A DNA stretch of 64,000 nucleotides from Candidatus Spongiisociaceae bacterium (GCA_965219685.1 CBDCOH010000002.1:2688001-2752000); one strand, 5' to 3'. Positions 15,543-38,348 are shown, counted from the stretch's first letter. Notes: generated by a model from the sequence alone, not told the origin. Made by a program: numbers and translations.

Positions 15543-16367
15543 CTACAACCTCGGCAGCAGGGTATCCAACAGGTCCCGGAAGCGGTCGGCGGCCTGCTCG
15601 GCGCATTCGATCACTTCCTCTGCCGTGATCCTGCGCCCGGCCAGGCCCGCGGCCCGGTTGGTGCACAGCGAGATGGCCAGCACCTCAGCGCCCATGTGGC
15701 GCGCAGCCGTCGCCTCCGGGACGGTCGACATGCCCACCAGCGATGCACCCAGGGTTATCGCCATCCTGATCTCGGCCGGGGTCTCGAACATGGGTCCGTG
15801 CCACCAGAGGTACACGCCCTCGCCCAGGCTCACGCCCACTTCGGCGGCCGCGGCGCGAGCCTTGTCGCGCAGGGCCGGGGTGTACACGTCCGTCATGTCG
15901 GGAAAGCGGGGACCGAGTCGCTCGTCATTGTCGCCCTTGAGTGGGCTCACTCCGGAGAGGTTGATGTGGTCCGTGATGAGGACCAGGTCCCCCGGCTCGA
16001 TCCCGTCGGCACATCCTCCGGAAGCATTGGTCAGCACGACCTTCCGGCACCCTGCCAGTACCGCGGTCCGGACAGCGAAGGTGAGCGCCTCCGGCGCGTA
16101 GCCCTCGTACGCATGGACCCGCCCGGAGAACAGCAGCACCCGGTTGTCGCCCCGTTCCACGGAAAAGGCGGTGCCCGAATGGCCCGGCGCCCCCGGAGCC
16201 GGGAAGCCCGGGATGTCCTCGTACGGTATCGCCACCGCGCCGTCGAGAGTATGCGGGTAGCCGCCCAGGCCGGAGCCCAGGACCACCGCCACGTCGTGCC
16301 GGTCGCGGCCGGTGCGCCGGGCGATCGTATCGGCGGCCACTGTGAGACGTCCGTGGAGACTGGTCAT
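15543..16367 (-). CDS. punA: Purine-nucleoside phosphorylase, trimeric PunA/XapA type
   Basis: VVLGSGLG...GRVHAYEG...LTNASGG...GPMFETPAE...VGMSTVPE...CTN (Asn suggests 6-oxopurine preference). Confidence 0.9.
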   Translation of the reverse strand: MTSLHGRLTVAADTIARRTGRDRHDVAVVLGSGLGGYPHTLDGAVAIPYEDIPGFPAPGAPGHSGTAFSVERGDNRVLLFSGRVHAYEGYAPEALTFAVRTAVLAGCRKVVLTNASGGCADGIEPGDLVLITDHINLSGVSPLKGDNDERLGPRFPDMTDVYTPALRDKARAAAAEVGVSLGEGVYLWWHGPMFETPAEIRMAITLGASLVGMSTVPEATAARHMGAEVLAISLCTNRAAGLAGRRITAEEVIECAEQAADRFRDLLDTLLPRL

Positions 16368-16400
16368 CCTCCGCACCGTAGTGCCGCGGTCACGATGTGC

Positions 16401-17123
16401 TCAGCAGTCGATAAGGGCATCGAGGCCGATCCCTATCATCGCCTCCACCGCTTCGTACACCACCGTGCGATGGGGATCGTATACCTTCTCGCGGTGCATA
16501 GGGTTGCCGTCCGCCACCAGGACAGCTCCCGTCTCGACCGAGTTGAGCGCTCCGTTGACGAACAGGGCGGCGCACTCCATCTCAACGGCAACCGCGCCGG
16601 CTTGATGCCAGAGTCCCAGGTCTCCGCCCAGTACTTCACCCGGGTAGAACAACGAATGCGTCAGCACGATCCCTTCGTGTGCCACTCGCCCGGCGGCTGC
16701 GGCCGCCCTCCGAAGCGCCACGATGACGTCCACCGAAGCGACTGCCGGAAACGCCGGCGGAACCATCGAGTCCGTAACCCCGTCCGCCCGGACGGCCGCG
16801 GTCACGATCACCAGATCTCCGTCCTCGACCTCGACCTTGAGCCCGCCGCATGTACCTGTACGAATGATCCGTGTCGCTCCCGCCCGGGCCAGTTCCTCGA
16901 AGGTAATGGCCGCGCCCGGAGCCCCGACACCGTGGGAGGACACCGCGACGTCCACGCCGCGGTGCTTTCCCCCGAACGTGACGTACTCACGGAACCGTCC
17001 CAGCAGGCGGGTCTCCTGCAGTTGGGACGCGGCAAGTTCGGCCCGGGCTGGATCACCCATGACCAGCACCCTCTCGGGAAGCTCATCGGGATCTACCCTC
17101 AGGATCGGGGTTCTGTCGGTCAC
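16401..17123 (-). CDS. Nucleoside phosphorylase, hexameric Udp/DeoD family
   Basis: VMGDPARA...FREY...SHGVGAPGA...IIRTGTCG...AVEMECA; GTG start after GGAGG. Confidence 0.9.
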   Translation of the reverse strand: MTDRTPILRVDPDELPERVLVMGDPARAELAASQLQETRLLGRFREYVTFGGKHRGVDVAVSSHGVGAPGAAITFEELARAGATRIIRTGTCGGLKVEVEDGDLVIVTAAVRADGVTDSMVPPAFPAVASVDVIVALRRAAAAAGRVAHEGIVLTHSLFYPGEVLGGDLGLWHQAGAVAVEMECAALFVNGALNSVETGAVLVADGNPMHREKVYDPHRTVVYEAVEAMIGIGLDALIDC

Positions 17124-17179
17124 CAGTACACCTCCTCGGGTGGGACGCCGGGGCTGGACGAGTAGTTCCAAGGGATCTG

Positions 17180-17250
17180 ACCGGAAGGACTATACTCTAC
17201 TATGTTCTACACAACGCTGTACAACACATTTATAACTCGAATGTGTCTGT
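17180..17250 (-). promoter_or_regulatory. AT-rich promoter/operator region upstream of the phosphorylase genes
   Basis: Local AT-rich patch with inverted repeat ACACATT...AATGTGT and TGT...ACA motifs. Confidence 0.4.
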
Positions 17251-17357
17251 TCCTGGACTCGGACCCCTCGCAGCCGCTATCGCGAAGAGCCCCCCTCGGC
17301 GTAACCGCGAGACCAAACAGTGCTATGGAGGATGGCAAATGATCCGACCTCACGGTA

Positions 17358-17406
17358 ACTACCGATTGCCAACTATAGACTACAGACTACCGACTAGGAA
17401 CTAATC
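17358..17406. repeat. Degenerate heptamer array (ACTANNN)x7 abutting the hipA stop
   Basis: ACTACCG ATTGCCA ACTATAG ACTACAG ACTACCG ACTAGGA ACTAATC. Confidence 0.8.
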
Positions 17407-17408
17407 AT

Positions 17409-18632
17409 CTAGGCACGGAGTTGCTCGGCCCGCGCCGACATGTCGTCATGAAGCCGGGCGGTCGTGGGCGCATCGAAGCCGATTTCGCCGACCCGGTCTA
17501 TCCAAGCCGTGCTCTTCTCGCAGATCTCCTGGATCTTGCGGCGGGTGAGGCGGGGCGGAATATCGAAAGATCCGGCGAAACGAACCAGATCACGGCCGCG
17601 GATACGGTTGGCCCGACCGTCGACATGCAGGGCCAGGAGGTCGTCCACAGGGTAGGGACGGGTAGATACCAAGTCGTACGCCGGGGTGGGTTCCACGATC
17701 GATTCGGAGGGCACCCACCGCACGCTGATGTTCTTGGCGTGCATATCGCCGTTCACTATCAGGTAGGAAAACGCGGTCAGGCGGACCAACTCCAGAATAG
17801 CCGCCTTGGGTGACGAAGCCACTGTGGCCACCCTCCGAATGACCTCACGCATCGACAGACGATACTTGTCCGCCGGCCAGCGTCCAGACAACTGGCAGGC
17901 ATCTTCCTGAGCTATGCGGCTGACCACTCCCTCCTCGGTAACCCGGTCGAACCGCTCTACCAGCAGGCCCGACTTCCCCAAGCGATCCTGAACGACCCGT
18001 AGCGGCGGTACCCGGAACCCGCACGACGACGCCATGGCGAGGAAGAACGCCTCGTTCTCGACCAGTAGCGGATAGCGCTCAGGGGTGAGTTTCAGAATTG
18101 CCGGCCCACCTCCCGCCCTGACCGGGAAGGAAATGAGAGCATCGGAGAGCTTGTCCTGTACCCCTGGAATCGCGGTGTCGAACTGCTGGTCGGTCACGGA
18201 GACCGAGCGGGCGAACAACTCGGCGAACGAGACATCCGTAGGATCCTGCACGCCCGGGGTGGCACCCGGATCGAGAGGACGCTCTCCGACGGGCACCACC
18301 GTCACATCCCCGACCGCGTCACCGGCCACCACCAGCAGGAGAGACATCTCGTCGTCTGCAGAGGTCTTGGCGCCCGATATGATCGCCTGGAGCCGCGCCC
18401 CCTCGGGTAGCAACCCGGCAAAGAAGGCGGGAACCGCGCCTCCCGGAGTGCGGTACGGTTCTCGACGTACAGGAAGGGTCGATGCCACCCTTCGACCCCC
18501 CGCCCGCAAGTATCCCGGTTCATACGCGAACTCGACATGATCGGTCATCCGCCGAAGGCGCCCGGCGAGGACATCACGCTTGAACACATCGGCGACATCC
18601 ACCGCCTTGGCTTCGGAGGCGTCGCTGATCAA
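17409..18632 (-). CDS. hipA: HipA-family Ser/Thr kinase toxin
   Basis: N-terminal FFAGLLPEG; IPGVQDKLS; LLVERFDR; QEDACQ; NGDMHAKNIS; PAYDLVS. Confidence 0.93.
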   Translation of the reverse strand: MISDASEAKAVDVADVFKRDVLAGRLRRMTDHVEFAYEPGYLRAGGRRVASTLPVRREPYRTPGGAVPAFFAGLLPEGARLQAIISGAKTSADDEMSLLLVVAGDAVGDVTVVPVGERPLDPGATPGVQDPTDVSFAELFARSVSVTDQQFDTAIPGVQDKLSDALISFPVRAGGGPAILKLTPERYPLLVENEAFFLAMASSCGFRVPPLRVVQDRLGKSGLLVERFDRVTEEGVVSRIAQEDACQLSGRWPADKYRLSMREVIRRVATVASSPKAAILELVRLTAFSYLIVNGDMHAKNISVRWVPSESIVEPTPAYDLVSTRPYPVDDLLALHVDGRANRIRGRDLVRFAGSFDIPPRLTRRKIQEICEKSTAWIDRVGEIGFDAPTTARLHDDMSARAEQLRA

Positions 18633-18847
18633 GGCCTACGCACCGGGTAGCGGGGTCGGGAGACGATGTCCAGACCCACGGCGTCGCAGATGGCAATCAG
18701 GTTGCGGAGGGTGACGGAGGAGGAGCCACGCTCCACCTCCGAGACCAGGCGACGATTGACGCCGATCAGTTCGGCCACATCGGCCTGGGTGAGCCGCAAC
18801 ACCTTCCGTCGCCGCCGGATCTCGATCCCGATCTCTTCGACACTCAA
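18629..18847 (-). CDS. hipB: HipB-like XRE HTH antitoxin
   Basis: IRRRRKVLRLTQADVAELIGVNRRLVSEVERG; 4-bp overlap with hipA. Confidence 0.88.
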   Translation of the reverse strand: MSVEEIGIEIRRRRKVLRLTQADVAELIGVNRRLVSEVERGSSSVTLRNLIAICDAVGLDIVSRPRYPVRRP

Positions 18848-18863
18848 CGATACCCCCCGAACT

Positions 18864-18942
18864 AGCGAGATATATGTAACATACAGGGTAGTGTCCGGGT
18901 TGTCCTCGGTAGGAGGCGGACAAGAAGCGAACTATATGTAGC
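18864..18942. promoter_or_regulatory. Two candidate HipB operator repeats
   Basis: AGCGAGATATATGTAAC (18864-18880) and AGCGAACTATATGTAGC (18926-18942), 14/17 identical, upstream of hipB. Confidence 0.5.
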
Positions 18943-19006
18943 TCTTTGTCGAGCGGCGGGGGTGGTGGCACGGTGGCGGTGCCCTCAGGACCAACCTCTT
19001 GGAAAA

Positions 19007-19046
19007 GCATCGATTTTGAGAGGCGTCGATTTTGAGAGGCATCGAT
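19007..19046. repeat. 16-bp direct tandem repeat x2.5
   Basis: GCATCGATTTTGAGAG GCGTCGATTTTGAGAG GCATCGAT. Confidence 0.85.
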
Positions 19047-19089
19047 CCTTCTTCAACCCTCATGATGGCCACACGGACGCGGCGCCGCC

Positions 19090-21060
19090 TCACACAACCC
19101 GTTCGTTCCCTCCGTCAACAGGGATCTGGGCGCCCGTCGTGGCGGCGAAGGTAGCGCTGCACAGTTCCGTCACAACGCCGGCTACCTGCTTCGAGGTCAC
19201 TTCAGTGGCCAGCAGGTTGCGCGTGCGGTATTCCTCCGCCGTCATCCCGTACACGGCGGCGCGCCCGGCGATGAGCTCATCGCTCCAGAGGCCTGTGTCG
19301 AACACGCCGTCAGGGTGGACTACGTTCACCCGGATACCGTCTGCCGCCCACTCGAGCGCCGCCACCCTCGCCAGTTGCGTCACAGCCGCCTTCGAGGCGG
19401 AGTAGGCCGCCGCACCACGGCCTGGCGCCGGCACGTTCTTCGAGCCGACCACGACCACCCGGCCGCCGACCGGGGAGCGGGCAAGCAACGGGTGCACCGA
19501 TGCCAGCAGGCTCGCCACCGCGTCCGTGTTGACGGCCTGAACCGAACGCCACCGGGCGGTGTCGAGGTCACTGAGAGGCCCCGGCCGGCCGAACACCCCT
19601 GCCGCAGCCACGGCGATGTCGACGCCTCCGAACCGTTCCACCGTACGGTCGAGTGCCAGTCGCTGAGCTTCGCGATCGGTCACGTCGACTTGAATCCCGT
19701 ACCAGGCCGGACCCGTAAACCTACCGCCCACGCCCGGATCCAGATCGAACCCGGCCACGGCGCACCCGCCGGAGAGTAGTTCAGCGGCGCAGGCGGCTCC
19801 GATCCCGGACGCGGCGCCCGTGACAAGCGCCACCATCCCCGCGAACCTCGGCGGCTCACCGGCCCGACGGAGTTTCGCCTGCTCCAGATCCCAGTACTCC
19901 ACTTCGAACAGATCGCCGGAACCGAGGGCAACGTAACCGCCGAGGTGGTCCTCGGCGCGTTCGAGGACCGGCATGGTGTGGTGGTAGATGTCGGCCGCGA
20001 TCCGGGAGGCCTTGGCGCTCTCACCGATTGTCAGCAGGCCCAGGCCCGGGTCTAACACCACTCTGGGCGCGGGATCGAGCATGGTCAGTTCAGTCCGTCC
20101 CCGGTGGCGGTTTTCCTCGAAGTACCTCCCGTAGGCATCGACATACGCGTCGACATCGGCTCCGACCATGGGCAGGCGCTTGGTCCTGATCACGTGGTCG
20201 GGGGTGAGCGGGCCCCGGGACGCCAGGCTATCCAGGTCGGCACGGCGCACGAACCGGCTAGTGGTCCGGTCGGTATGGCGGGCCATGATCATCGGTTTGC
20301 CGGCCGCTTCCGAGATCCGGAGACGCAGGCTGGCCAGTTCCACCGAGCAGGCCGGAGGGAGTGTGTCCGGGTCCGGATCAGCCTGACGGGCATGCGCCTC
20401 CAGCCAGCGCTCGGCAGCCGTAATCAGCCGGATGTGGCGGGTGTAGGCAGCCTTGGTAGTCGACCCGAAGGTGAACAGCCCGTGGTTGAGGAGCACGAGA
20501 CCTTCCATCCCCTCCCGGTACTGCTCCCGCCAGATGGCCACGATCGCCCGGGCCAGGTCGAAGCCCGGCATCACATAGGGGACTATCCCGACCCTCTGGC
20601 CGAACACCTCCCTTACCCGCGCCTCGCCGTCGGCCAGGTTGGTGAGGGTGACGATGGCGTCGGCATGGCTGTGCTGGACCGCACGGTAAGGGAGGAAAGC
20701 ATGCAGGAGGGTCTCCACGGACGGCTGGGGCGCGGCGGGATCCAGCCGGGCGGCCGACAGCTCCCGCATCATGTCGGGGTCGGACAGCCTTTCGAGAGCG
20801 AGCAGATCATGCAGGCGGTCGAGGGGCAGCGGCGTGAACCCGGGCGCTTCGATCGCTCCCAGGTCCCACCCGGAACCCTTCACGTAGAGGGCGTCGATGG
20901 TCCGCCCGGTGATGTCCTCGAACGGCGCCTTGACCGAGGTGTTGCCGCCTCCGTGCAGGACAAGGTAGGGGTCGGAGCCCAGCAACCTGGACCCGTAGAC
21001 ACAGCCACCGAGGGGCCCATCGAATGCAGCCGCCTCAGCGTCTCGCCATCTGTTTTTCAT
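19090..21060 (-). CDS. Bifunctional class II aldolase / short-chain dehydrogenase (RhaD-SDR-like family)
   Basis: HGGGNTSVK...PSVETLLHA...HSHAD...NHGL aldolase domain; VTGAASGIG...YSASK...NVVHPD SDR domain. Confidence 0.92.
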   Translation of the reverse strand: MKNRWRDAEAAAFDGPLGGCVYGSRLLGSDPYLVLHGGGNTSVKAPFEDITGRTIDALYVKGSGWDLGAIEAPGFTPLPLDRLHDLLALERLSDPDMMRELSAARLDPAAPQPSVETLLHAFLPYRAVQHSHADAIVTLTNLADGEARVREVFGQRVGIVPYVMPGFDLARAIVAIWREQYREGMEGLVLLNHGLFTFGSTTKAAYTRHIRLITAAERWLEAHARQADPDPDTLPPACSVELASLRLRISEAAGKPMIMARHTDRTTSRFVRRADLDSLASRGPLTPDHVIRTKRLPMVGADVDAYVDAYGRYFEENRHRGRTELTMLDPAPRVVLDPGLGLLTIGESAKASRIAADIYHHTMPVLERAEDHLGGYVALGSGDLFEVEYWDLEQAKLRRAGEPPRFAGMVALVTGAASGIGAACAAELLSGGCAVAGFDLDPGVGGRFTGPAWYGIQVDVTDREAQRLALDRTVERFGGVDIAVAAAGVFGRPGPLSDLDTARWRSVQAVNTDAVASLLASVHPLLARSPVGGRVVVVGSKNVPAPGRGAAAYSASKAAVTQLARVAALEWAADGIRVNVVHPDGVFDTGLWSDELIAGRAAVYGMTAEEYRTRNLLATEVTSKQVAGVVTELCSATFAATTGAQIPVDGGNERVV

Positions 21061-21247
21061 CGGTTATCCGTTGCCCGTTGTCGCTTGCCCGTTGTACCGG
21101 GTGTCATGCGCGTGCTATCGGCTCGCTGTCCTAGCTGTCAACGCATCGTAGAGACTCGATGACCGACCACCACTCACCACTCACCACTCACCACTCACCA
21201 CTCACCACTCACCACTCACCACTCACCACTCACCACTCACCACTCAC
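21061..21247. repeat. Bipartite heptamer array: degenerate (CCGTTGY)x5 left arm and perfect (CACTCAC)x11 right arm
   Basis: Left 21061-21095 abuts the aldolase ATG; right 21171-21247 abuts the SDR stop. Confidence 0.93.
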
Positions 21248-22029
21248 TAATACGGTGTATCGCCGCCGTCGACGTTGATGGCCTGACCCCTGATGATCAG
21301 CGCATCGTCCGAAAGGAGAAAGGCGATCACCCTGCCCACCTCCAGCGCGCTCACCCTCCTCGCCAGTTGCGCAGGGCCCATACCCGACAGTAGCTGGTCG
21401 GCCGGTATGTCGAGGCGGGGGGACAACCACTCAGCCACGCCGCGTAGCATCGGGGTGTCGACGCCTCCTGGGCACACCGCGTTCACATTTATACGGTCTT
21501 CGGCCCACTCCATCGAAAGCGACCGGGTGAGACCGATCACCGCGGCCTTGGAGGCGTTATAGGCGGCCATGTTGCGGTAACCGACCTTGCCGCAGTTGGA
21601 CGAGACGTTGACGATGGAGCCTCCGCCGGTGGTCCTCAAGTGCATGCCGACGGCCTTCGCGACCAGGAAGGACCCGGTCACATTGACGTCCAACTGGCGG
21701 TTCCAATCGGAGGCGGTCGCGTCCCAGGCCTCGTCCAGCATCACCGCTCCAGCGTTGTTGACCGCACCGTCGAGGCGCCCGAACCGGTCCAACGTCCCCC
21801 GGACCGCAGCAGCGACATCTTCGACCGAGGAGACATCCCCCTGCAACGCACAGGTCGCGGAGCCATCGGGGTCTACCATCGCGGCGACCCTCTCCGCTCG
21901 GCCGAGATCCAGGTCCACGAGCGCCACCCGGCCACCCTCCTCCAGGATCGCTTGGGTGATGCCGGCCCCGATCCCTCCGGCGGCGCCGGTCACAAGGAAG
22001 ACCCGTCGCGCCAACCTGGGGGCGCTCAT
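21247..22029 (-). CDS. SDR family oxidoreductase (sugar/polyol dehydrogenase-like)
   Basis: VTGAAGGIG...NNAG...SSNCGK...YNASK...NAVCPGGVDT; start MSAPRL at 22029. Confidence 0.92.
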   Translation of the reverse strand: MSAPRLARRVFLVTGAAGGIGAGITQAILEEGGRVALVDLDLGRAERVAAMVDPDGSATCALQGDVSSVEDVAAAVRGTLDRFGRLDGAVNNAGAVMLDEAWDATASDWNRQLDVNVTGSFLVAKAVGMHLRTTGGGSIVNVSSNCGKVGYRNMAAYNASKAAVIGLTRSLSMEWAEDRINVNAVCPGGVDTPMLRGVAEWLSPRLDIPADQLLSGMGPAQLARRVSALEVGRVIAFLLSDDALIIRGQAINVDGGDTPY

Positions 22030-22039: not shown

Positions 22040-22813
22040 TCACCAGGTGGGCCGGCTGAGTACGCCGCCGTCCACCACCAGGTTGGCGCCGGTGATCCAG
22101 CGGGCCAGGTCAGAGCACAGGAAGACGCAAGCGTCGCCAATGTCCTCCGGTGTACCGAGCCTCCCCATCGGGCACGCGTCCCGCCACCGCCGGACCCCCT
22201 CCGGCCAGGCCGACACAATCCCCGGGCGGCTTATCAGACCGGGCGAGACGGTGTTCACCCGGATGCCCTCAGGTCCGTACGCGAGCGCCGCTGCCCGGGC
22301 GTGCATGATAAGGCCGGCCTTGGAGACCGAGTAGTGACCATGGCCCGGCGCCGGATTGGTCCCCTCGATCGACGAGATGTGGACGATCGAGCCACCCCCT
22401 CCCCGGGTACCCATGGCAGATGCGGCCGCCTGGGTGAGGCGGTGGACCGCGGTCAGGTTGGTGTCGATCATCTCCGACCATTGGGCATCGGTGAGATCCG
22501 CGAAGGGCGCTACAGGTTGGATGCCGGCGTTGTTGACCAGCGCGTCAAGGCGACCGAGGTTCTGCACGACCATATCCACCAGCTCACGCGGACCGTCGAC
22601 CGTGGTCAGGTCCGCCTCCACTCCGGGCAGGGCCTGCCCGCTCCGGTCGCGCAGGTGGCTCACCGGCGAGGAGCGTGTGTGGGCCACCACCGTGGCGCCC
22701 GCTGCCACGAACCGGCGCGCTATCCCGGACCCAATGTTGCCCCCTGCACCTGTGACGACCACAACCCGGCCCGCAAGGTCGATCATGTCGGCCGGAGAGG
22801 GGAGATCACTCAT
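22040..22813 (-). CDS. SDR family oxidoreductase
   Basis: VTGAGGNIG...NNAGIQP...HYSVSKAG...NTVSPGLI. Confidence 0.92.
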   Translation of the reverse strand: MSDLPSPADMIDLAGRVVVVTGAGGNIGSGIARRFVAAGATVVAHTRSSPVSHLRDRSGQALPGVEADLTTVDGPRELVDMVVQNLGRLDALVNNAGIQPVAPFADLTDAQWSEMIDTNLTAVHRLTQAAASAMGTRGGGGSIVHISSIEGTNPAPGHGHYSVSKAGLIMHARAAALAYGPEGIRVNTVSPGLISRPGIVSAWPEGVRRWRDACPMGRLGTPEDIGDACVFLCSDLARWITGANLVVDGGVLSRPTW

Positions 22814-22852: not shown

Positions 22853-23299
22853 CTACTCCCTAACGTAACGGGGGATCCGGCCGGCGGCAGCCGGGTAGCG
22901 GTCCATGAGTTCGGCCGCTTCGCCGAGCTCGAATCCTTCCTCGCGGTAGGGCGGGGCCATGGTGGCGCCCACGAGGGACCAGGCACCCACTGTTCGAGCG
23001 CCCATCCACACTCCGGCCCGCACCGCCAAACACGGTCGCTGCCCTGCGGCCAGATCGTCGCCGAGGACAGGCGCCCGCACTCCTCCCTCCGGTTCCAGCA
23101 GCAGCATCGCCACCGGATCCCCCGCGTAGTGATGCCACAGTTCGGCTGCATCCAGCCGGTGGATGGCCGAGAAATCGCCGGGCTGGAGCAGGTAGTAGAT
23201 ACCGCTCCCGTGTTCGTCCTTCCAAGTGCGAGCCCACATCCCCCCTTCGACGGGGAGCGGTGCCAGACCGAGAAGGGCGACCACTTCGGCGCCGGTCAC
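22853..23299 (-). CDS. Cupin, DUF985/cupin_5-like
   Basis: L.PLPVEGG...IYYLL...HRLDAAELWHHYAGDP...WSLVGATMAPPY...FELG. Confidence 0.88.
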   Translation of the reverse strand: MTGAEVVALLGLAPLPVEGGMWARTWKDEHGSGIYYLLQPGDFSAIHRLDAAELWHHYAGDPVAMLLLEPEGGVRAPVLGDDLAAGQRPCLAVRAGVWMGARTVGAWSLVGATMAPPYREEGFELGEAAELMDRYPAAAGRIPRYVRE

Positions 23300-24600
23300 C
23301 GGGCCAGCCGCCTGGCCCGGCGACCCATCTCCGCGTGGACAGGCGCGGCGTCGATCGAGACAACCCGTCCATCGTCCACCACCTGGCGTCCGCCCACCCA
23401 GACCGACCGGACGGCTCCGGGCGATCCGGACCAGACGACGCGGGAGATGGGATCGTCCTCGTCCGGGATCACCGGCTTCAATGCCGGCTCATCACCGTAG
23501 ATCGCCACCATGTCCGCCCATGCACCGGAGGCGAGGCGCCCAAGGTCAGGACGGTCTATGCAGTCGGCAGCCCCGGCGGTGGCCATATGAAGGGCCTGAT
23601 GGGCCGGGAGTACGGCAGCGTCCCCTGCTTTCAGGCGCGCCAGGCGGATCGCCATCCGCATCTCCTCGAACAGATCGAGGCGGTGGTGGGACGCGGGCCC
23701 GTCGGTCCCCAGACCGACCCGGACGCCCGCCTCTACGAGTTCCGGTACTCGAGCAACACCGGAGCCGTGCTTGGCGTTCGAACACGGGCAGTGGGCCACC
23801 GCCGTCCCGTTCCGGGCGAGGATCTCGATGTCATCGTCCGCCATCCATACCGCATGGGCAGCCAGGGCCCGGCCTTCCAGGAGCCCCAGTGACTCGAGGT
23901 ACGCCGGCGCGGACATCCCGGACCGCTCCCGCACCGCACCGTCCTCCCACTCCTGCTCTGCAACGTGGATATGCACCAGCATTCCGGTCTCGGAACCGAT
24001 GGCGGCGATCCGGCGCAGGCACTCGTCGGACAGCGAGTAGGCGGCGTGCGGACCGAGACCCACCTCGATCAGATCGTTCGACGCCCAACGCTCCCATGTG
24101 GCCACCATCTCTTCCAACTGAGCCTGCCAGGTACCGAAGCGGTCGAGTTGGGCATCCTCGATCACCGGCGCTGTCACGAGACACCTGAGGCCGGCATCGG
24201 CGGCGCCTGCCGCCACGGCATCCCCGTGGAAGTACATCTCGACCGAACTGGTGATCCCGTTGGCGAGCAACTCGATAGCACCCGCCTGCATCCCGACCCG
24301 CACGTCCTCCGGGGTCAGGCGAGCTTCTCGCGGCCACATGACCTCGTGGAGCCAACGGTCCACCGGCAGACCCTCCCCCGCTCCCCTGAGCAGCACCATC
24401 GGCGTATGACAGTGGATGTTGACCATTCCCGGCATGAGGACGCCGTCGATGCGATGAACCGTGGCGTCACCAGGGTCGGGCGCCTCGGAAACCGGCCCCG
24501 ACCAGACGACCCGTCCCTCCTCTACGTCCACCACCCCGTCCGGGATCGGACGCTGGTCGCCGGACATGGTCAGCAGCGTGTCTGCTAGGTAACGGTCCAT
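23296..24600 (-). CDS. Amidohydrolase, MTA/SAH (5'-deoxyadenosine) deaminase-like
   Basis: PGMVNIHCH...GPHAAYS...HIHVAE...AHAVW...HCPCSN.K...GLGTDG; start MDRYL at 24600. Confidence 0.88.
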   Translation of the reverse strand: MDRYLADTLLTMSGDQRPIPDGVVDVEEGRVVWSGPVSEAPDPGDATVHRIDGVLMPGMVNIHCHTPMVLLRGAGEGLPVDRWLHEVMWPREARLTPEDVRVGMQAGAIELLANGITSSVEMYFHGDAVAAGAADAGLRCLVTAPVIEDAQLDRFGTWQAQLEEMVATWERWASNDLIEVGLGPHAAYSLSDECLRRIAAIGSETGMLVHIHVAEQEWEDGAVRERSGMSAPAYLESLGLLEGRALAAHAVWMADDDIEILARNGTAVAHCPCSNAKHGSGVARVPELVEAGVRVGLGTDGPASHHRLDLFEEMRMAIRLARLKAGDAAVLPAHQALHMATAGAADCIDRPDLGRLASGAWADMVAIYGDEPALKPVIPDEDDPISRVVWSGSPGAVRSVWVGGRQVVDDGRVVSIDAAPVHAEMGRRARRLAR

Positions 24601-24767
24601 GCGGCCTCCTGGATGGTGGGCGTCTTGCCCCACCAGTATCCGTTGATGCACTTCGCTTAGGGCTCGGCGACTCGATGATAAGGGACGATCGGGCAAACGA
24701 CACAGCTCAAAGGCACCGACCTCCGTGCGGCCCCGCCACGTAGCCACCGGCCACTATCCTACGGCCC

Positions 24768-25832: not shown

Positions 25833-25902
25833 ACCATAAACTCGGTCTCGCGCGGCCAGGGGCCGCGCGCCGACCCAAAGAGAAGAAAGCGAGGACCGCA
25901 TC

Positions 25903-28570: not shown

Positions 28571-29672
28571 TAGCCGATCGACCCGGCGCCGCGGCGCCGG
28601 CGCCACGATCGAGGCGGCACTGGCCCATCCGGTTGTCTTTTCGCTGGTCTTCGCTTTCGCCCTGGGCTGGGCGATCGTCTACCTGACCGGGAACGACCCC
28701 GGCTTCGCGTACCGCGAGATGTTGGACGGGGCGGTCGCCGGCTCCGGGCTCCGCAACACCCTCGGGAGAGCCGTTCCGATCGTCGGGATGGCGCTTGCGG
28801 TGTCGGTTGCCTTCCGGGCAGGGGTCATCAACCTCGGTGGGGAAGGCCAGATGGTCATGGGGGGCCTGGCGGGGAGCCTGGTGGCGATCTACGTACCGGG
28901 ACCGGGCGAGATCGTTATTCCCCTGGCGATGGTCGTGGGGGGATTGGCCGGAGCGATGTGGGCGATGCTACCCGCCTTCGGACAGACCCGCCTCCGCCTA
29001 CCTATCCTCATCACCAGCCTGCTGCTCAACTACGTGGCCAGAGCTGTGACCGGATACCTGGTTCGGTTCCACTTCCTGGACGACTCCGTGACTCTGACCT
29101 CAACGCGCCAGGTTCCCGAGACCGCACGGATGCCCAAGCTGCCGCTATTCGGAGGCGTAAGCCTGTCGCTCGTGCTGGTTGTCCTCGCGGTAGTGGTGGC
29201 GTGGGTGTTCTATCGACGGACCGTGCCCGGTTACGAGACGCAGATGGCCGGCTTCAACGGACGGTTCGCCCGCTACGGGGGAATACAGGTGGAACGCCAA
29301 ACCGTTGGAGTGATGGTCGTGGCCGGCGCCATCGGCGGGGCGATCGGAACCCATATGATCATCGGCGACGCCTACCGCTTCATCGATGGGGAACTGGTGG
29401 TGAGCGGTCTGGCCTGGACCGGCCTCCTGGTTGCGCTGCTGGCCGCCAACCATCCACCGATGATCCTGGTGGCCGGACTGCTGTTCTCGGGCCTCCAGAT
29501 AGGGGGATTGGCCATGCAGCGCAACGCCGATGTGTCATGGCGCCTGTCCCAGGTACTCCAAGCACTGGTGATCGTCGCGGTGGCCAGCCGTCTGACCTTC
29601 GACCTGTTCAGGCGGCGGCGGAAGGGCCCCACCACCGGCGAGCTCGAGTCTGCCGCCGTGGGAGAAGTGTGA
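28563..29672 (+). CDS. Nucleoside ABC transporter permease 1
   Basis: AFRAGVINLGGEGQ; multiple TM helices. Confidence 0.92.
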   Translation: MADSRSTRRRGAGATIEAALAHPVVFSLVFAFALGWAIVYLTGNDPGFAYREMLDGAVAGSGLRNTLGRAVPIVGMALAVSVAFRAGVINLGGEGQMVMGGLAGSLVAIYVPGPGEIVIPLAMVVGGLAGAMWAMLPAFGQTRLRLPILITSLLLNYVARAVTGYLVRFHFLDDSVTLTSTRQVPETARMPKLPLFGGVSLSLVLVVLAVVVAWVFYRRTVPGYETQMAGFNGRFARYGGIQVERQTVGVMVVAGAIGGAIGTHMIIGDAYRFIDGELVVSGLAWTGLLVALLAANHPPMILVAGLLFSGLQIGGLAMQRNADVSWRLSQVLQALVIVAVASRLTFDLFRRRRKGPTTGELESAAVGEV

Positions 29673-30592
29673 TGTTCGAGCAACTGTTCGACGCAGCCCT
29701 TCTGGAATCAGTGATCAGGGCAATGGTCCCGATCCTGCTAGCCGCCCTGGGCGGGATGATCTGCGAACGAGCCGGCGTGTTCCAGATCGCAATGGAAGGA
29801 ATGATGCTGGCCGGGGCCTTCGCGGCGATGGCCGGTTCGTACCTGGCCGTCTCCAGCGGCCTGGGGGTGGTGTTCGGAGTGATCGCCGGGGTGCTGGTGT
29901 CCCTGATGCTGGCATTCGGGACCGTCAGCCGGAAGGGGGATCCCATCGTGCTTGGCATCGCTCTCAACCTGATGGCGCTGGGGCTCACCGGATTCCTGCT
30001 CCCACAGATCTTCGGCGTGCGCGGCACGTTCCGCCACGAACGTATCGACGGACTGGATCGGCTACCGATTCCGGGCCTGTCGGAGATCCCGTGGATCGGG
30101 TCGGTCCTCTTCGACCAGACGATTCTCGGCTACCTGGCCTTCCTTCTGGTGCCGGCCATCTGGCTCGTCCTGTTCCGCACGCCGCTGGGTCTGCGCCTTC
30201 GGGGAGTGGGCGAGCGCCCTCTGGCGGCCGAGTCATTGGGTGTCAGCCCCACCGCCTACAAGTATGGCGCGGTGATCGTTTCGGGCGTCCTGTCGGGAAT
30301 GGCCGGAGCGCAGCTGGCATTGGGCAACCTGGTGCTGTTCGCCGAGGGCATGTCGGCGGGACGGGGCTGGGTCGCGGTGGTGGCGGTGATGCTCGGGAGA
30401 GCCCATCCCTTCGCTGTGTTCGGCGCCAGTCTCCTCTTCGCGTTCGCCGAGGGTCTCGGGTTCCGGCTGCAGGGCAACGGCCTACCCGTGCAGATAACCG
30501 ATGCCCTCCCCTTCGTGGTCACCCTCATCGCATTGATCGCCGCCCGCAAACGGTTCGTTCGGCTCCTGGACCTCACCACTGCCACGAATTGA
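29672..30592 (+). CDS. Nucleoside ABC transporter permease 2
   Basis: ATG at 29672 coupled to the upstream TGA; ERAGVFQIAMEG...GLRLRGVGE.P.AAES.G...AGRGWVA. Confidence 0.92.
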   Translation: MFEQLFDAALLESVIRAMVPILLAALGGMICERAGVFQIAMEGMMLAGAFAAMAGSYLAVSSGLGVVFGVIAGVLVSLMLAFGTVSRKGDPIVLGIALNLMALGLTGFLLPQIFGVRGTFRHERIDGLDRLPIPGLSEIPWIGSVLFDQTILGYLAFLLVPAIWLVLFRTPLGLRLRGVGERPLAAESLGVSPTAYKYGAVIVSGVLSGMAGAQLALGNLVLFAEGMSAGRGWVAVVAVMLGRAHPFAVFGASLLFAFAEGLGFRLQGNGLPVQITDALPFVVTLIALIAARKRFVRLLDLTTATN

Positions 30593-30639: not shown

Positions 30640-31578
30640 TCAAGGCGTCGAGGGCGAGAAGGCCAGAGGGTTGGCGTCCTGGTCGACCGGTGGATTTGAG
30701 GGATCCGAACCGACCAACTCGAGAAGTCTGGCGGCCCGTGGATCGAGATCGCTGTCGACTCTCCATACGGCCTCGATGACCCTGAGCGCCACCAGCGGCC
30801 CTTCGTCCAGGGGAGAGCCAGGCTCGGCTTCCGCCACCTGCCGCGGGAGCACCGTACTCGCGTAGCCCAGCACCGCCATCTGGCGGAGCACCGTGGGGTG
30901 GGCGGACTCGAGAGCCACCTCCGGGCGGATACCGAGTTGCGCCAGGCCCTGATCGATCAGGAGCCGGGTGCGGGACCCGGGAGGGTACAGCGCCCAGCCT
31001 TCAGCAGTCGGCTCGTAGCCGCCCGTGTCGCCAGGCGCGACCGGGGGATCGTGTGCCAGGGAATAGACATGCATCCGCTCGACGGTGACGCGCCTCGAGT
31101 TGTAACGAGCCCCGGCCGGCCCCACGACGAAGGCCAGGTCCACCTGGTAGTCGTCGAGCATCGACAGCAGTTCGGCGGACTCGGCCACCACCAACTGCAG
31201 ATCGATGTCGGGGAGATCCTCCTGCAGCCGCCGCAGCCCGGACGGGAGGGTGTACAGACCGACCGTGTCGATCATCCCCACCCGGAGGGAACCGACCTCG
31301 CCACGCTCCCAACTCTCCAGCCACCTGAGCAGATCGGTCGTCTGGCCTATGACCTGGTCCGCGTAGCGGGCCACCCGCAGTCCGGCCTCGGTCAGCACCC
31401 GCCGCCGACCGTCCCGTCTGAACAGGGGTGCTCCCAGGCGCCTGGCGAGCTCCGCCAGTGAGTGGGACAGAGCCGGCTGGCTGATGCCCAGCCCCCAAGC
31501 GGCCTCAGTGAACGAACCGGATCGCTCGACCTCTTGGAGGTAGCGCAGGCTCCTGAAATTGAGTGGCGGGATATCCAT
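30640..31578 (-). CDS. LysR-family transcriptional regulator
   Basis: GSFTEAAWGLGISQPALSHSLAELARRLGAPLFRRDGRRRVLTEAG. Confidence 0.95.
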   Translation of the reverse strand: MDIPPLNFRSLRYLQEVERSGSFTEAAWGLGISQPALSHSLAELARRLGAPLFRRDGRRRVLTEAGLRVARYADQVIGQTTDLLRWLESWERGEVGSLRVGMIDTVGLYTLPSGLRRLQEDLPDIDLQLVVAESAELLSMLDDYQVDLAFVVGPAGARYNSRRVTVERMHVYSLAHDPPVAPGDTGGYEPTAEGWALYPPGSRTRLLIDQGLAQLGIRPEVALESAHPTVLRQMAVLGYASTVLPRQVAEAEPGSPLDEGPLVALRVIEAVWRVDSDLDPRAARLLELVGSDPSNPPVDQDANPLAFSPSTP

Positions 31579-31645
31579 AAGTAATCCTAATCATAAGCCA
31601 TAGAACTATCTATTTGACTGATGAGAAGTCGAGGTCAGACTGTAG
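31575..31645. promoter_or_regulatory. Divergent LysR/ino1 promoter with T-N11-A box
   Basis: AT-rich spacer with TAAGTAATCCTAA (T-N11-A), repeated CATAAG, and TTGACT -35-like hexamer at 31614. Confidence 0.55.
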
Positions 31646-31669
31646 TCACCAGATGCAGAGGATGTAAGA

Positions 31670-32737
31670 ATGAACGAAATAAGGGTGGCGATCGTGGGAG
31701 TCGGCAACTGTGCCTCCTCCTTCGTGCAGGGGGTGGAGTTCTACCGGGACGCACCAGCGGACCAGACCATCCCGGGGCTGATGCACCCCGTGCTGGGCGG
31801 CTACCACATCGGGGACATCCGTTTCGTGGCTGCGTTCGACGTGGACGCGGCCAAAGTGGGCCAGGACCTCTCCAAGGCGATCACCGCGGGTCAGAACAAC
31901 ACTGTTTCGTTCTGCGATGTCCCCGACCTCGACGTGGCGGTGCAGAGAGGCCCGACCCTGGACGGGATCGGCGCCTACATCGCCGGGGTGGTGGAGGAGT
32001 CAGCGGCCGTCGAGGTGGATGTGGCAGAGGTGCTGCGCCAAGCCCGGGCAGATGTGGTGATCTCGTACCTGCCTGTCGGGTCGCAAGCGGCGACCGAGTA
32101 CTACGTGGAGCAGGCGCTGGCGGCGGGATGTGCCTTCGTGAACTGCATTCCGGTGTTCATCGCCCGCACCGATGAGTGGGCGGACCGGTTCCGGGAGGCG
32201 GGACTCCCGATAGTGGGCGACGACATAAAGTCCCAGGTGGGTGCCACGATCCTGCACCGGACCCTCGTGAACCTCTTTCAGGATCGGGGGGTGAAGGTGG
32301 ACCGCACCTACCAACTCAACTTCGGGGGCAACACCGACTTCCTCAACATGTTGGAGAGAAGTCGCCTCGTGTCCAAGAAGGAGTCCAAGACCAAGGCGGT
32401 CACCAGCCAACTCGAGACCCGCATGCCGGTCGAGGACATCCATGTCGGGCCCTCGGACCATGTTCCGTGGCTGACCGACCGCAAGTGGGCCCACATCCGG
32501 CTCGAGGGCACCTCCTTCGGCAACACCCCGTTGGATGTCGAGGTCAAGTTGGAAGTATGGGACAGCCCCAACTCAGCCGGGGTGGTGATAGATGCCGTCC
32601 GCTGCGCGAAGCTTGGTCTGGACAGGGGACTATCAGGTCCACTTTATGAAGCCAGTGCGTACTTCATGAAGTCCCCACCCCGCCAGATGCGGGACGGTGC
32701 AGCAAGGGAAGCAGTGGAGCGGTTTATTCGTGGATAG
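31670..32737 (+). CDS. ino1: Inositol-3-phosphate synthase
   Basis: [13 protein letters not shown]...SYLPVGS...[12 protein letters not shown]...[13 protein letters not shown]...WDSPNSAG. Confidence 0.96.
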
Positions 32738-35302: not shown

Positions 35303-35405
35303 GACGTCGGTCCTCCGACTGCTGGAAGCATCCCACGACCGGCCCCAGGCCGGCTGGGCAACCGTCCCAAACCCTACCGAGGCCCGCTCGTCACAGATGG
35401 AAATC

Positions 35406-36176: not shown

Positions 36177-36438
36177 AGCGGTTCCTTCCGCTCGGCTTCA
36201 GGTCCGGCGTCTCCCGGCGTCTGCCACCGCATCATCGCTAACGCGAGAGGGTATTCAACGGCGCTCGATCATGCATCACCGGAGGGCACCGACCGAGCCG
36301 GCGGTAACCTTGCCGAGCGGCTACCGGTTGTAGTGGACGGCGGACCACACACTGCCGCTCGACCCGGTTCCGTGACCGTGATCGATCGAAGGGAACGCCG
36401 TCCGCGCAACGCGGCGGAAAAGGTGGAGACGAGCATTG

Positions 36439-37236
36439 ATGGGCGCATTCGACAAGTCTGCCATCGACAAGGACGCGCGGCAGTACGCCACCAGGGTGAG
36501 GAAGGGCGAGGTGGCCCGGTACGTGCTGCTGCCGGGAGATCCCGCCCGCGTCGACCGGATCGGGACCCACCTCGATGATGTGACCCCGGTGGCGAACAGC
36601 CGGGAGTTCCATACGATCACGGGTTCCTACAAGGGCATCCCGGTCAGCGCTACCTCCACCGGTGTCGGTTGCCCGTCGGCCTCGATCGCCGTCGAGGAAC
36701 TCGCCAACGCGGGCGCCACCCACTTCATCAGGGTGGGCAGTACTGCCGCACTCCAGCCACATATCCGGACCGGAGACATCGTCATCAACACGGGTGTCGT
36801 CCGCAACGACGGTACGACCCGAGCCTACGTTCCCGACACTTACCCGGCCATTGCCGATCACTTCCTCGTCCACGCCCTCATAGAGACGGCTCGGGACCTC
36901 CGCTCGGAGGCAGGGTTCGAGATGCACATCGGCCTGGGCGCATGCGACGACGCATTCTACGCGGAGACTCCGGAGTGGATCGAACGCCATTCCCGCCTCG
37001 GGCTGCTGAACATCGAGATGGAGAGTTCCGCCATCTTCACGGTGGCTCAGCTCCGTGGCGTCCATGCGGCGATGGTGTGCGGTGTGTCCGGCAGCCTGGT
37101 GGTGGCCGACTTCGACTACGACCGGGGAGAGCACGGCAACCAGCGCCTGGTGGCAGCCTGGGAAAACGCGATCGCGATCGCCCTGGAGGCGGTCCTCCGG
37201 TACGACGCGGAGTACTCCGCGCCCCTCCCGGCATGA
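36439..37236 (+). CDS. Nucleoside (uridine-type) phosphorylase
   Basis: VLLPGDPARV...SREF...STGVGCPSASIAVEEL...IRVGST...NIEMESS. Confidence 0.92.
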   Translation: MGAFDKSAIDKDARQYATRVRKGEVARYVLLPGDPARVDRIGTHLDDVTPVANSREFHTITGSYKGIPVSATSTGVGCPSASIAVEELANAGATHFIRVGSTAALQPHIRTGDIVINTGVVRNDGTTRAYVPDTYPAIADHFLVHALIETARDLRSEAGFEMHIGLGACDDAFYAETPEWIERHSRLGLLNIEMESSAIFTVAQLRGVHAAMVCGVSGSLVVADFDYDRGEHGNQRLVAAWENAIAIALEAVLRYDAEYSAPLPA

Positions 37237-38348
37237 ATGTGAACGACGGAGCAACTCCGCACGACCTGGACGCCTTCATCGAGGAGATGCCCAAGGCCGA
37301 ACTGCACGTTCATCTCGAAGGGACGATGCAGCCATCCACAGCAGTCGAGTTGGCCGCACGCCACGATCTGACCCAGACCCTTCCCACCACGGATCCGGAG
37401 CGACTGTCCGGGTGGTTCGAGTTCACGGACTTCGCGGACTTCATTCGCGTGATCGTCGCCTCGCAGAACCTGATTCGTACATCCGATGATTTTGCGCTGG
37501 TCACCTACCAGGCCGGCGCCGACATGGCTCGGCAGAGCATCCGCTACCGGGAATTGACCGTCTCCCCGTACAACCACACCCACTACTTCGACAAAGGGCT
37601 ATCTTTCCGCGACCTCCTCAACGGCCTGGAAGAGGGACGGAGGAGCGTCAGAGCGGACTTCGGCGTGGAGATACGCTGGGTGTTCGACATCGGCCGAAAC
37701 CTCTGTTTCTCCGGCCCCGACCGTGCGTACGATCCCGAACCGGCCGATACGACCCTGCGTTACGCACTCGCCGGACGCGAGTACGGGGTGATCGGATTGG
37801 GCATAGGCGGCGACGAGGAGGGCCGCCCTCCGGAACCGTTCACCCATGCTTTCCGGGCGGCGAAGCGGGAGGGTCTCGCAAGCGTGCCTCACGCCGGGGA
37901 ATCGCTGCGGGATTGGAGTGCGGACCACGTAAGGGGATCGATCTACGCCCTTGGAGCCGACCGGATCGGGCACGGGGTCGGGGCGATCAGGGATCCCCAC
38001 GTCCTCGCCCTCCTGCACGACCGGGCCATTCCCCTGGAAGTGTGTCCCACCAGCAACCTCAAGACCCGTGTGTGCCGCGATCTCCGCCTGCATCCCTTCC
38101 CCCATCTCGACGCCATGGGACTGACCCTCACGGTCAACAGCGACGACCCTCCGTTCTTCGGAACCACGCTGACCGACGAGTACAGGCTCCTGGCCACTGA
38201 GTTCGGTTACGGACCCGAGGACCTCGTGCGGATCGCCCGCAACGCTTTCGTATCGGCCCTATGCGGGCCTGCCCTACGCCGGGCCCTCCTCGATGAGTTC
38301 GACGCGTGGGTTCGTGAGCACACCATGGAGGCAAGCCCCGAGAATTGA
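37233..38348 (+). CDS. add: Adenosine/adenine deaminase
   Basis: PKAELHVHLEG...HAGE...RIGHG...VCPTSN...NSDDP; ATGA overlap with the upstream stop. Confidence 0.92.
   Translation: MNVNDGATPHDLDAFIEEMPKAELHVHLEGTMQPSTAVELAARHDLTQTLPTTDPERLSGWFEFTDFADFIRVIVASQNLIRTSDDFALVTYQAGADMARQSIRYRELTVSPYNHTHYFDKGLSFRDLLNGLEEGRRSVRADFGVEIRWVFDIGRNLCFSGPDRAYDPEPADTTLRYALAGREYGVIGLGIGGDEEGRPPEPFTHAFRAAKREGLASVPHAGESLRDWSADHVRGSIYALGADRIGHGVGAIRDPHVLALLHDRAIPLEVCPTSNLKTRVCRDLRLHPFPHLDAMGLTLTVNSDDPPFFGTTLTDEYRLLATEFGYGPEDLVRIARNAFVSALCGPALRRALLDEFDAWVREHTMEASPEN

Follow-up and report, generated by a model that had tools for sequence, protein, structure and literature searches.

In the 64,000-nucleotide window analysed here, from Candidatus Spongiisociaceae bacterium (GCA_965219685.1, CBDCOH010000002.1:2688001-2752000), we find a divergent gene cluster whose products may together import and dismantle 5'-deoxy- and 5'-methylthio-nucleosides. 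Its host is an Acidimicrobiia bacterium. Genes in this DNA, with about 65% G+C, were picked by the G+C content of their codon positions and identified with Pfam and NCBIfam models, and their starts were refined to where conservation among orthologues begins. At the centre of the cluster lies a 167-bp intergenic region (24601-24767) with presumed promoters for two divergent transcription units. On the plus strand, MtnA, a 5-methylthioribose-1-phosphate/5-deoxyribose-1-phosphate isomerase (24768-25832; TIGR00512, 357.7 bits, cut-off 279), is followed by an importer composed of a BMP-family binding lipoprotein (25903-26994; PF02608), an ABC ATPase (27047-28570; two ABC_tran matches) and two permeases (28563-29672 and 29669-30592; two BPD_transp_2 matches). 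The minus-strand operon begins with Amh, a TRZ/ATZ-type amidohydrolase (23296-24600; Amidohydro_1, 205 bits), and continues with a Cupin_5/DUF985 protein of 128 amino acids (22853-23239; PF06172, 108.4 bits, cut-off 25) and two classical short-chain dehydrogenases/reductases (SDRs), SDR1 (22040-22813; adh_short_C2, 204 bits) and SDR2 (21247-22029, with an ATG start at 22029; adh_short_C2, 190 bits). Then come AldSDR, a 656-residue fusion of a class II aldolase with an SDR (19090-21060; NF006196, 930.1 bits, cut-off 831), HipB (18629-18847, 72 amino acids; HTH_3/HTH_31) and the toxin-antitoxin component HipA (17409-18632; HipA_C and Couple_hipA). The last two genes encode UdpL1, a Udp/DeoD-like nucleoside phosphorylase of the hexameric family (16401-17171; PF01048, below all NCBIfam cut-offs), and PunA, a PunA-type trimeric purine nucleoside phosphorylase (15543-16376; NF006054, 322 bits, cut-off 218; TIGR01697, 284 bits, cut-off 197). 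The reading that we favour, with a probability of roughly 0.6, is that these genes would encode a deaminase-first, import-fed variant of the dihydroxyacetone phosphate (DHAP) shunt, acting on 5'-methylthioadenosine (MTA) as well as on 5'-deoxyadenosine (5dAdo).

All genes named in the first-pass annotation of this DNA were recovered by Pfam and NCBIfam, and the ends that it gave coincide with gene ends; its sole omission was the HipBA pair. HipBA sits between the fusion and UdpL1 and interrupts an operon whose other gaps, with SDR2 counted from 22029, measure 10-186 bp. No orthologous locus has HipA at this position, and among 80 loci collected around Cupin_5 orthologues only 2 have HipA elsewhere. 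HipBA is a local insertion outside the pathway and, since none of the orthologous loci has it there, it may split transcription of the operon. At the distal end, the stop of PunA abuts with zero gap the start of the gene for the glycogen branching enzyme GlgB (13608-16376 for the two genes, minus strand), an adjacency also present in three other loci (L011, L012 and L014).

The grouping of these genes is more than chance. We collected loci with two independent seeds: the AldSDR fusion, which yielded 32 loci from one-genome-per-species contigs, and an alignment of Cupin_5 orthologues, which yielded the 80 loci mentioned above, kept of at least 555 relatives and all from Acidimicrobiia, Actinomycetota or unclassified metagenome-assembled genomes (MAGs). 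Window proteins were mapped to the 80 loci by tblastn (E <= 1e-10, at least half of the query covered), and the resulting counts are minimum values, since many contigs break off within the cluster. SDR1 was found in 69 loci, Amh in 44, MtnA in 38, the fusion in 30, SDR2 and the ABC ATPase in 29 each, PunA in 27, the BMP protein in 24 and UdpL1 in 20. Conserved neighbourhoods in relatives, on which the first-pass annotation had made its proposal depend, are present: MtnA, Amh, Cupin_5, SDR1, SDR2 and the fusion occur as a six-gene set in 22 of the 80 loci, so that a lack of co-conservation is excluded; 18 of these 22 add the BMP protein and UdpL1, and 11 of the 18 add PunA. A DHAP-shunt-like route fed by a nucleoside importer, the core of that proposal, gains from the presence of MtnA in 26 of the 30 fusion-bearing loci. 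Three of the remaining four are cut by a contig end near the cluster, and the fourth (L046) belongs to the close relative OY760694.1 (L013/L046), in which the cluster is split and the phosphorylases too are missing within 9-10 kb. Amh is present in 37 of the 38 loci that carry MtnA, and the BMP protein always stands beside MtnA. Among the fusion-seeded loci, MtnA adjoins the fusion in 11 of 32, all 11 among the 19 from Actinomycetota or unclassified MAGs and none among the 13 from cyanobacteria, gammaproteobacteria, Magnetococcales and Chloroflexota. Pfam annotation of 108 open reading frames (ORFs) around 16 fusion loci without the full cluster revealed no common theme. In a class sample of 121 genomes, each at least 85% complete, the fusion exceeds its cut-off in three (the source genome G000, G078 and G124), and in all three the contig with the fusion also carries MtnA, at a distance of 5-9 kb.

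The source genome (4.42 Mb, 96.7% complete) holds MtnA, Cupin_5 and PunA in single copy. Genome-wide, no match was found for MtnB (TIGR03328), MtnC (TIGR01691), ARD/MtnD (PF03079), MtnK or a RuBisCO-like protein (PF00016), although at this completeness absence is not provable; the best match for MTAP in the genome is PunA itself (76 bits, cut-off 275) and the best for MTAN reaches 32 bits against a cut-off of 74. The lack of mtnB, mtnC, mtnD and mtnK, first noted for the window, holds for the genome as well, and the concern that MtnA might work only with a canonical methionine-salvage set elsewhere found no support. Canonical methionine salvage is unlikely, because there are five independent misses. 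S-adenosylhomocysteine (SAH) has its own route, since SAH hydrolase is present. As no MTAP, MTAN or MtnK reaches its cut-off, the cluster would be the cell's only recognisable means of MTA and 5dAdo disposal.

The same absences leave room for a different scheme, a non-canonical methionine salvage in which the aldolase-like domain would act as an MtnB-type dehydratase and the cupin as an ARD-like dioxygenase, with the SDRs replacing the enolase-phosphatase chemistry on the way to the methionine keto-acid. All the canonical downstream enzymes are indeed missing from the genome, MtnB and the N-terminal domain of the fusion share a Pfam family (PF00596), and ARD is a cupin. However, the MtnB model finds no match anywhere in the genome, the nearest characterised relative of the fusion is an aldolase-dehydrogenase, and the cluster contains neither a phosphatase nor an aminotransferase. 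Moreover, the slot of the fusion is taken in a related operon (G058) by a FucA-like aldolase, and nothing specific to ARD emerges among the fold neighbours of the cupin. We consider this scheme very improbable.

The genome's two further class II aldolase genes were considered as MtnB and rejected: the first is a neighbour of ask/asd, the second is part of an amidohydrolase/aminotransferase cluster, and neither is linked to MtnA. A second cluster of the genome (L010, G000:C2:1832001-1848000) encodes several amidohydrolases, a class-III aminotransferase, a class II aldolase-like protein, DUF1989, AA_synth and isochorismatase-like proteins, and looks as if it served the catabolism of a nitrogen-rich compound. 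Beyond the copies in the cluster, the genome holds at least seven amidohydrolase paralogues, five further BMP-type binding proteins, three further nucleoside phosphorylases of the hexameric family (four in all) and two further adenosine-deaminase-like genes. These numbers suggest broad scavenging of nucleosides or heterocycles.

Amh is predicted from its sequence to deaminate MTA and 5dAdo. Its nearest solved chains are 4gbd, 4dyk and 4f0r (219-228 bits), of which 4f0r is labelled as an MTA/SAH deaminase and 4gbd is probably the MTA deaminase of P. aeruginosa. The residues of the deaminase pocket for the ribose and its 5' substituent were not found in PMC5676521. For PunA, the predicted reaction is the conversion of 5'-methylthioinosine and 5'-deoxyinosine to hypoxanthine and a 5-substituted ribose-1-phosphate. 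The first-pass annotation had read an Asn of PunA as the mark of a 6-oxopurine enzyme, and rightly so: its CTN motif corresponds to MTN or ITN in the two solved purine nucleoside phosphorylases (PNPs) that match best and to ITD in the third, and the Asn is invariant across 25 distinct orthologous loci. In human PNP, the O6 of the base receives a hydrogen bond from the Asn (PMC3214022), and the His of the NHEEV motif makes one to the 5'-hydroxyl (PMC3214022, PMC4308819). The window PunA has Ala at the place of this His; 14 loci, of which 13 bear the fusion, likewise have Ala, Ser or Gly there. This pattern is suggestive rather than independent evidence, because the two residue groups are two clades.

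For UdpL1, the best NCBIfam match is uridine phosphorylase (153 bits, cut-off 280), and among solved structures it comes closest to chains labelled as PNP or putative uridine phosphorylase (124 bits). Val, Ile and Phe stand in the window protein at three positions that we take, with some uncertainty, to be those deciding the use of 5'-methylthioinosine in Plasmodium PNP, and we draw no conclusion from them. The best solved relatives of the BMP protein include 2fqw and 4pev.

The fusion matches NF006196, a family without an assigned substrate, over residues 1-656 of the 657 profile positions. Its aldolase domain belongs to PF00596, and the HSH and NHG motifs, presumably the metal ligands, line up with their counterparts in the FucA-like aldolase of G058; its SDR domain has a YSASK site (Ser/YxxxK) and an Asp-type dinucleotide motif, FDLD. 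In SDRs, an Asp-type motif points to NAD and an Arg-type motif to NADP. The fusion is predicted to cleave 5-deoxy- and 5-methylthio-ribulose-1-phosphate into DHAP and an aldehyde, and then to oxidise the aldehyde with NAD+. Its only characterised relative is RhaEW of C. aurantiacus and B. subtilis, which turns rhamnulose-1-phosphate into DHAP and lactate when NAD+ is supplied, is inactive with NADH and depends on NAD+ for the aldolase reaction too (PMC3870299). By analogy with RhaEW, and given the Asp-type motif, the fused SDR probably makes an acid rather than the alcohol that had been proposed initially.

It could be argued that the fusion is simply a RhaEW of the rhamnose pathway and that its neighbourhood is coincidental. 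The RhaEW model TIGR02632 (RhaD_aldol-ADH) does match over the full length, with 424.9 bits, but this is below its cut-off of 567.75 whereas that of NF006196 is passed. RhaEW is, according to PMC3870299, always encoded in rha loci, yet no rhamnose isomerase, kinase or mutarotase is seen in the cluster, and no rha gene is among the 26 ORFs scanned at 11613-43540, the rest of the genome being unsearched for rha. With MtnA in the same locus in 26 of 30 cases, coincidence is extremely unlikely.

Three variant clusters bear on the substrate. In G078, a gene of the MTAP family (259-281 bits, just under the cut-offs) overlaps the stop of MtnA in a cluster that otherwise resembles that of the window. 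In L056 (Microthrix), the phosphorylase beside the importer and MtnA scores 237.6 bits on NF006599, the model for S-methyl-5'-thioinosine phosphorylase, and so exceeds its cut-off of 223; the window PunA stays below it with 71.9 bits. In the G058 operon, Cupin_5, SDR1 and MtnA are followed by a stand-alone FucA-like class II aldolase, and this MtnA with its stand-alone aldolase is the classic core of the DHAP shunt. Together with the proximity of Amh to 4f0r and the Asn of PunA, the above-threshold S-methyl-5'-thioinosine phosphorylase of the sister cluster upholds the earlier suggestion that deamination comes first.

With these data in mind, a six-step route may be proposed, each step being deduced from sequence and gene context. 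The BMP-dependent ABC system would import nucleosides, and endogenous MTA and 5dAdo would join the route at the second step, where Amh would deaminate them to 5'-methylthioinosine and 5'-deoxyinosine. PunA, perhaps with help from a Udp-like enzyme, would then carry out phosphorolysis to hypoxanthine and a 5-substituted ribose-1-phosphate, which MtnA would isomerise to the corresponding ribulose-1-phosphate. The aldolase domain of the fusion would split the latter into DHAP and an aldehyde, either acetaldehyde or 2-(methylthio)acetaldehyde, which the NAD-type SDR domain of the same protein would oxidise to acetate or 2-(methylthio)acetate. We favour 5'-methylthio and 5'-deoxy ribosides as the substrates because of the variant clusters, the PunA residues, the relatives of Amh and the lack of another disposal route.

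Several observations weigh against this route. Amh scores below every NCBIfam cut-off, including those of the 5'-deoxyadenosine deaminase model (NF005557, 253.3 against 522 bits) and the MTA/SAH deaminase model (NF012037, 204.8 bits, cut-off 779), and it is therefore fairly called divergent; at least seven paralogues of it are encoded in the genome. PunA has the score of an ordinary PNP, and the genome encodes no other trimeric one, so that it may simply be a housekeeping enzyme. Eleven PunA loci that keep the His hold Cupin_5 and, in most cases, Amh and MtnA, and none of them has the fusion in the DNA examined; the change from His to a small residue tracks one clade and may reflect lineage history. 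Between the aldolase domain of the fusion and the FucA-like Ald2 of G058 there is no more than a remote similarity (E = 0.034), and homologues of the fusion with 50-53% identity occur in cyanobacteria and gammaproteobacteria without a nearby MtnA (the 0 of 13 loci above). In the close relative OY760694.1 (about 81% identity), Amh, Cupin_5, SDR1, SDR2 and the fusion stand together without MtnA or transporter within 9-10 kb. Moreover, ordinary nucleosides are the usual ligands of BMP proteins, nutrients such as MTA and 5dAdo are scarce, and three SDR modules plus a cupin exceed the needs of the proposed chemistry.

Some of these points would suit a general catabolism of ribonucleosides, in which imported adenosine or inosine would give, through deamination and phosphorolysis, ribose-1-phosphate, an MtnA-like isomerase ribulose-1-phosphate, and the fusion DHAP and glycolaldehyde, the latter being oxidised to glycolate. 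A BMP importer, ordinary-looking PunA and Udp-like phosphorylases, and an ordinary adenosine deaminase-phosphorylase pair nearby would all be expected of it, as would the 5'-hydroxyl-binding His kept by the eleven PunA orthologues just mentioned. The stand-alone aldolase of G058 also matches a haloarchaeal ribulose-1-phosphate aldolase model, at 168 bits and thus below its cut-off of 300. On the other hand, the isomerase passes the MtnA cut-off and fails that for ribose-1,5-bisphosphate isomerase (142 bits, cut-off 314), and we know of no MtnA that uses ribose-1-phosphate. Sister clusters use phosphorylases of the MTAP or methylthioinosine (MTI) type, the window PunA lacks the His that binds the 5'-hydroxyl, and the deaminase belongs to the MTA/SAH-deaminase type, a true adenosine deaminase having a gene of its own. 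General ribonucleoside catabolism is, on this evidence, an unlikely function of the cluster.

The DHAP-shunt variant leaves Cupin_5, SDR1 and SDR2 to be accounted for. Cupin_5 and SDR1 form the tightest pair, with 68 pairs within 300 bp in the 80 loci and a median gap of 18 bp between the matches. SDR1 carries an Arg-type (NADP) motif, HTRS, which is conserved in its orthologues, and is a candidate aldehyde or keto reductase; SDR2 carries an Asp-type (NAD) motif, VDLD, and is missing from four otherwise complete versions of the cluster (L056, L104, L120 and G058). The Cupin_5/SDR1 pair accompanies MtnA whether or not the fusion is present. In 33 of the 80 loci Cupin_5 stands apart from the other cluster genes, either with SDR1 or by itself, in variable surroundings (84 ORFs annotated). 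All five stand-alone genomes tested have MtnA elsewhere, compared with a background of 23 of 121 in the class sample. In one of the five MtnA is divergent from the fusion, and in another SDR2 and SDR1 are divergent from MtnA. The other three (G126, G127 and G128) have a second type of MtnA, 39-40% identical to that of the window, which in G126, the one annotated, lies directly beside adenosylhomocysteinase (L127, G126:C1:128000-147000), with Cupin_5 and SDR1 at another site. Since the stand-alone genomes still hold MtnA elsewhere, the modules reassort but stay in the same genomes.

The predicted structure of Cupin_5 has a predicted local distance difference test (pLDDT) value of 92, and a fold search placed the DUF985 structures 1yud, 1znp and 3loi first (query-normalised template-modelling scores of 0.73-0.87), followed by a dTDP-sugar isomerase and then by generic cupins, which is a lead only. 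One DUF985 crystal form holds GDP. The Protein Atlas returned only DUF985 clusters. In the class sample, the four Cupin_5 copies from genomes with cluster genes and one other copy score 106-117 bits, and seven copies score 137-159 bits. Our best guess is that Cupin_5 and the NADP-type SDR1, with SDR2 in some clusters, are an accessory module of the pathway that handles an aldehyde or keto-sugar intermediate. One may speculate further that Cupin_5 and SDR1 are a dedicated and so far unrecognised module of 5'-deoxynucleoside salvage, an idea that we hold to be rather doubtful. In one version of it the pair would process 2-(methylthio)acetaldehyde, perhaps freeing the methylthio sulfur for re-use. 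If true, this would be the first biochemical role for DUF985, whose solved members come from bacteria, yeast, Leishmania and amphioxus, within a third, deaminase-first form of the DHAP shunt in which a built-in aldehyde dehydrogenase allows the whole ribose skeleton to be assimilated.

The first-pass annotation had extended its proposal to unusual nucleosides. In such a reading, analogues from the environment or a host, for instance xylo- or arabino-configured or halogenated 5'-deoxy nucleosides, would have their sugar oxidised, epimerised and reduced by SDR1, SDR2 and the cupin and would then enter the DHAP shunt. An NADP-type SDR1 and an NAD-type SDR2 would suit an oxidise-then-reduce pair, by the cofactor rule given above, and both the dTDP-sugar isomerase as the nearest fold outside DUF985 and the GDP in a DUF985 crystal would speak for this extension. 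Many hosts of the cluster are, by their record titles, MAGs from marine invertebrate metagenomes, but there are also MAGs with the cluster for which the record title mentions no invertebrate host. SDR2 is missing from the four versions listed above, Cupin_5/SDR1 is found alone in 33 of 80 loci, and no particular analogue is indicated by the sequences. Such a re-configuration is, in our view, quite improbable, and the evidence on substrate favours ordinary 5'-deoxy and 5'-methylthio ribosides over non-ribose sugars.

A second Udp-like phosphorylase, UdpL2 (36436-37236, plus strand; TIGR01718, 207 bits, below the cut-off of 280), and the adenosine deaminase Add (37233-38348, plus strand; TIGR01430, 244 bits, above the cut-off of 217) lie about 6 kb past the importer, beyond unrelated genes for a LysR protein, an inositol-3-phosphate synthase, a BisC-type molybdoenzyme and another SDR. 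The stop of UdpL2 overlaps the ATG of Add (ATGA), so the coupling of the two that had been proposed stands. Their membership in the pathway is improbable: Add orthologues lie 14-20 kb from the cupin in the chromosomes of four of five relatives and are missing in the fifth, synteny being confined to close relatives, and UdpL2-like genes (35-36% identity) appear in 3 of the 80 cupin-seeded loci and never inside the conserved cluster. UdpL2 and Add are probably a separate neighbouring operon, about 12 kb away, for ordinary purine salvage. Directly after Add follows an ISL3-family transposase gene whose end overlaps that of a convergent acetate/propionate kinase gene (39682-40920; region 38557-40920).

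As for regulation, the LysR gene (30640-31578) was considered and rejected as a regulator of the cluster, as it converges on the transporter genes and is transcribed divergently from the gene for inositol-3-phosphate synthase, which it probably regulates. That synthase scores 545 bits on TIGR03450, below the cut-off of 638 (30640-32737 with LysR), and the pair adjoins the importer in 5 of the 80 cupin-seeded loci. In G078 and G129 a GntR-type regulator lies within the cluster instead. A search with Rfam for known RNAs and riboswitches gave only 4 tRNAs over the whole window at gathering thresholds and nothing in 24400-26000 at E <= 1, and comparison of 31 Amh/MtnA intergenic regions revealed no conserved operator, only coding-edge k-mers and -10-like elements. 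Further along the window, 41135-43540 (minus strand) encodes an 801-residue protein with GAF, PAS, HisKA, HATPase, receiver and OmpR-type DNA-binding domains, a histidine kinase fused to a complete response regulator. The stretch 49700-60200 (minus strand) is a run of ORFs with a third-position G+C of 0.84-0.93 and an AT skew of up to 0.24 over 50-58 kb.

Cells that use S-adenosylmethionine, in polyamine synthesis or through radical-SAM enzymes, make MTA and 5dAdo, which are inhibitory and need removal (PMC6079011, PMC10986504, PMC3214022). If our reading is right, the cluster would add a third entry route to the DHAP shunt, through a deaminase and a 6-oxopurine phosphorylase, and a fused aldolase-dehydrogenase that turns the aldehyde into a usable acid, with SDR1, SDR2 and Cupin_5 as candidates for the missing downstream chemistry. 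NF006196 would gain a testable substrate, and DUF985 its first consistent metabolic context. The distribution of the cluster suggests that Acidimicrobiia, including many MAGs from marine invertebrate metagenomes, scavenge such nucleosides as sources of carbon and purine. Our literature search, mostly without subscription papers or supplements, returned no account of this gene combination or of the function of DUF985 and none linking the aldolase/SDR fusion to MtnA. In a comparative-genomics paper on sponge Actinobacteriota (PMC11706023), the main text has none of six words for the pathway, and the supplements may list such genes.

Among the closest known systems is the DHAP shunt, or 5-deoxyribose salvage, of R. 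rubrum, extraintestinal E. coli and B. thuringiensis, which uses MtnP, or MtnN with MtnK/DrdK, followed by MtnA/DrdI and Ald2/DrdA. A July 2026 review counts two characterised variations, entered by MtnP or by MtnN with MtnK, and describes the enzyme that reduces 2-methylthioacetaldehyde in the known shunt as unknown (PMC13474568). Exogenous 5'-deoxynucleosides support growth of E. coli, its shunt ends under aerobic conditions in ethanol as a dead end (PMC10986504), and some clusters include sugar transporters (PMC6079011). The present cluster shares with these an MtnA-type isomerase, above its cut-off, and close to it encodes a PF00596 domain that would take the place of Ald2/DrdA. It differs in that entry would be by a deaminase and a 6-oxopurine phosphorylase, with neither MTAP nor MTAN and MtnK above threshold, in that the aldolase is of another subfamily and fused to an SDR, in its importer of the BMP nucleoside type, and in the Cupin_5 and one or two further SDRs embedded in the cluster.

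Deaminase-first routes are known from Plasmodium (PfADA and PfPNP), P. aeruginosa (MTA deaminase and MTI phosphorylase) and M. jannaschii (DadD and MtiP), and according to the reports on them (PMC3214022, PMC6302742) they deaminate MTA or 5dAdo to the inosine analogue before phosphorolysis releases hypoxanthine, as we propose here. Amh belongs to the same family as a solved chain labelled as MTA/SAH deaminase, and the MTI phosphorylase of L056 is above its cut-off; in contrast, the window has a PunA-type PNP in place of an MTI phosphorylase of the MTAP family. Nor are those routes described, in the parts of the reports available, as clustered with MtnA and an aldolase, whereas here all steps fall in one cluster. 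RhaEW has the same two-domain architecture over the full length, and its conversion of a ketose-1-phosphate into DHAP and an aldehyde that is then oxidised to an acid with NAD+ is the one proposed for the fusion, but the latter falls in a separate NCBIfam equivalog and sits with MtnA, a deaminase and phosphorylases rather than in a rha locus. The MTA-isoprenoid shunt of R. rubrum resembles the cluster in having a cupin, a methylsulfurylase, downstream of MtnA on a methylthio-keto compound (PMC6302742); it differs in needing a RuBisCO-like protein, which has no match in this genome. The R. rubrum cupin is not known to belong to the Cupin_5/DUF985 family.

The first-pass annotation had not recognised the combination as a described pathway, and our literature search indeed gave no account of it. 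Deaminase-first entry and import-fed use, however, have each already been described elsewhere, and we therefore see the combination as a variant and not as a new type of pathway. The cluster recombines known pieces and adds to them a fused aldehyde dehydrogenase, a BMP importer and a cupin/SDR module.

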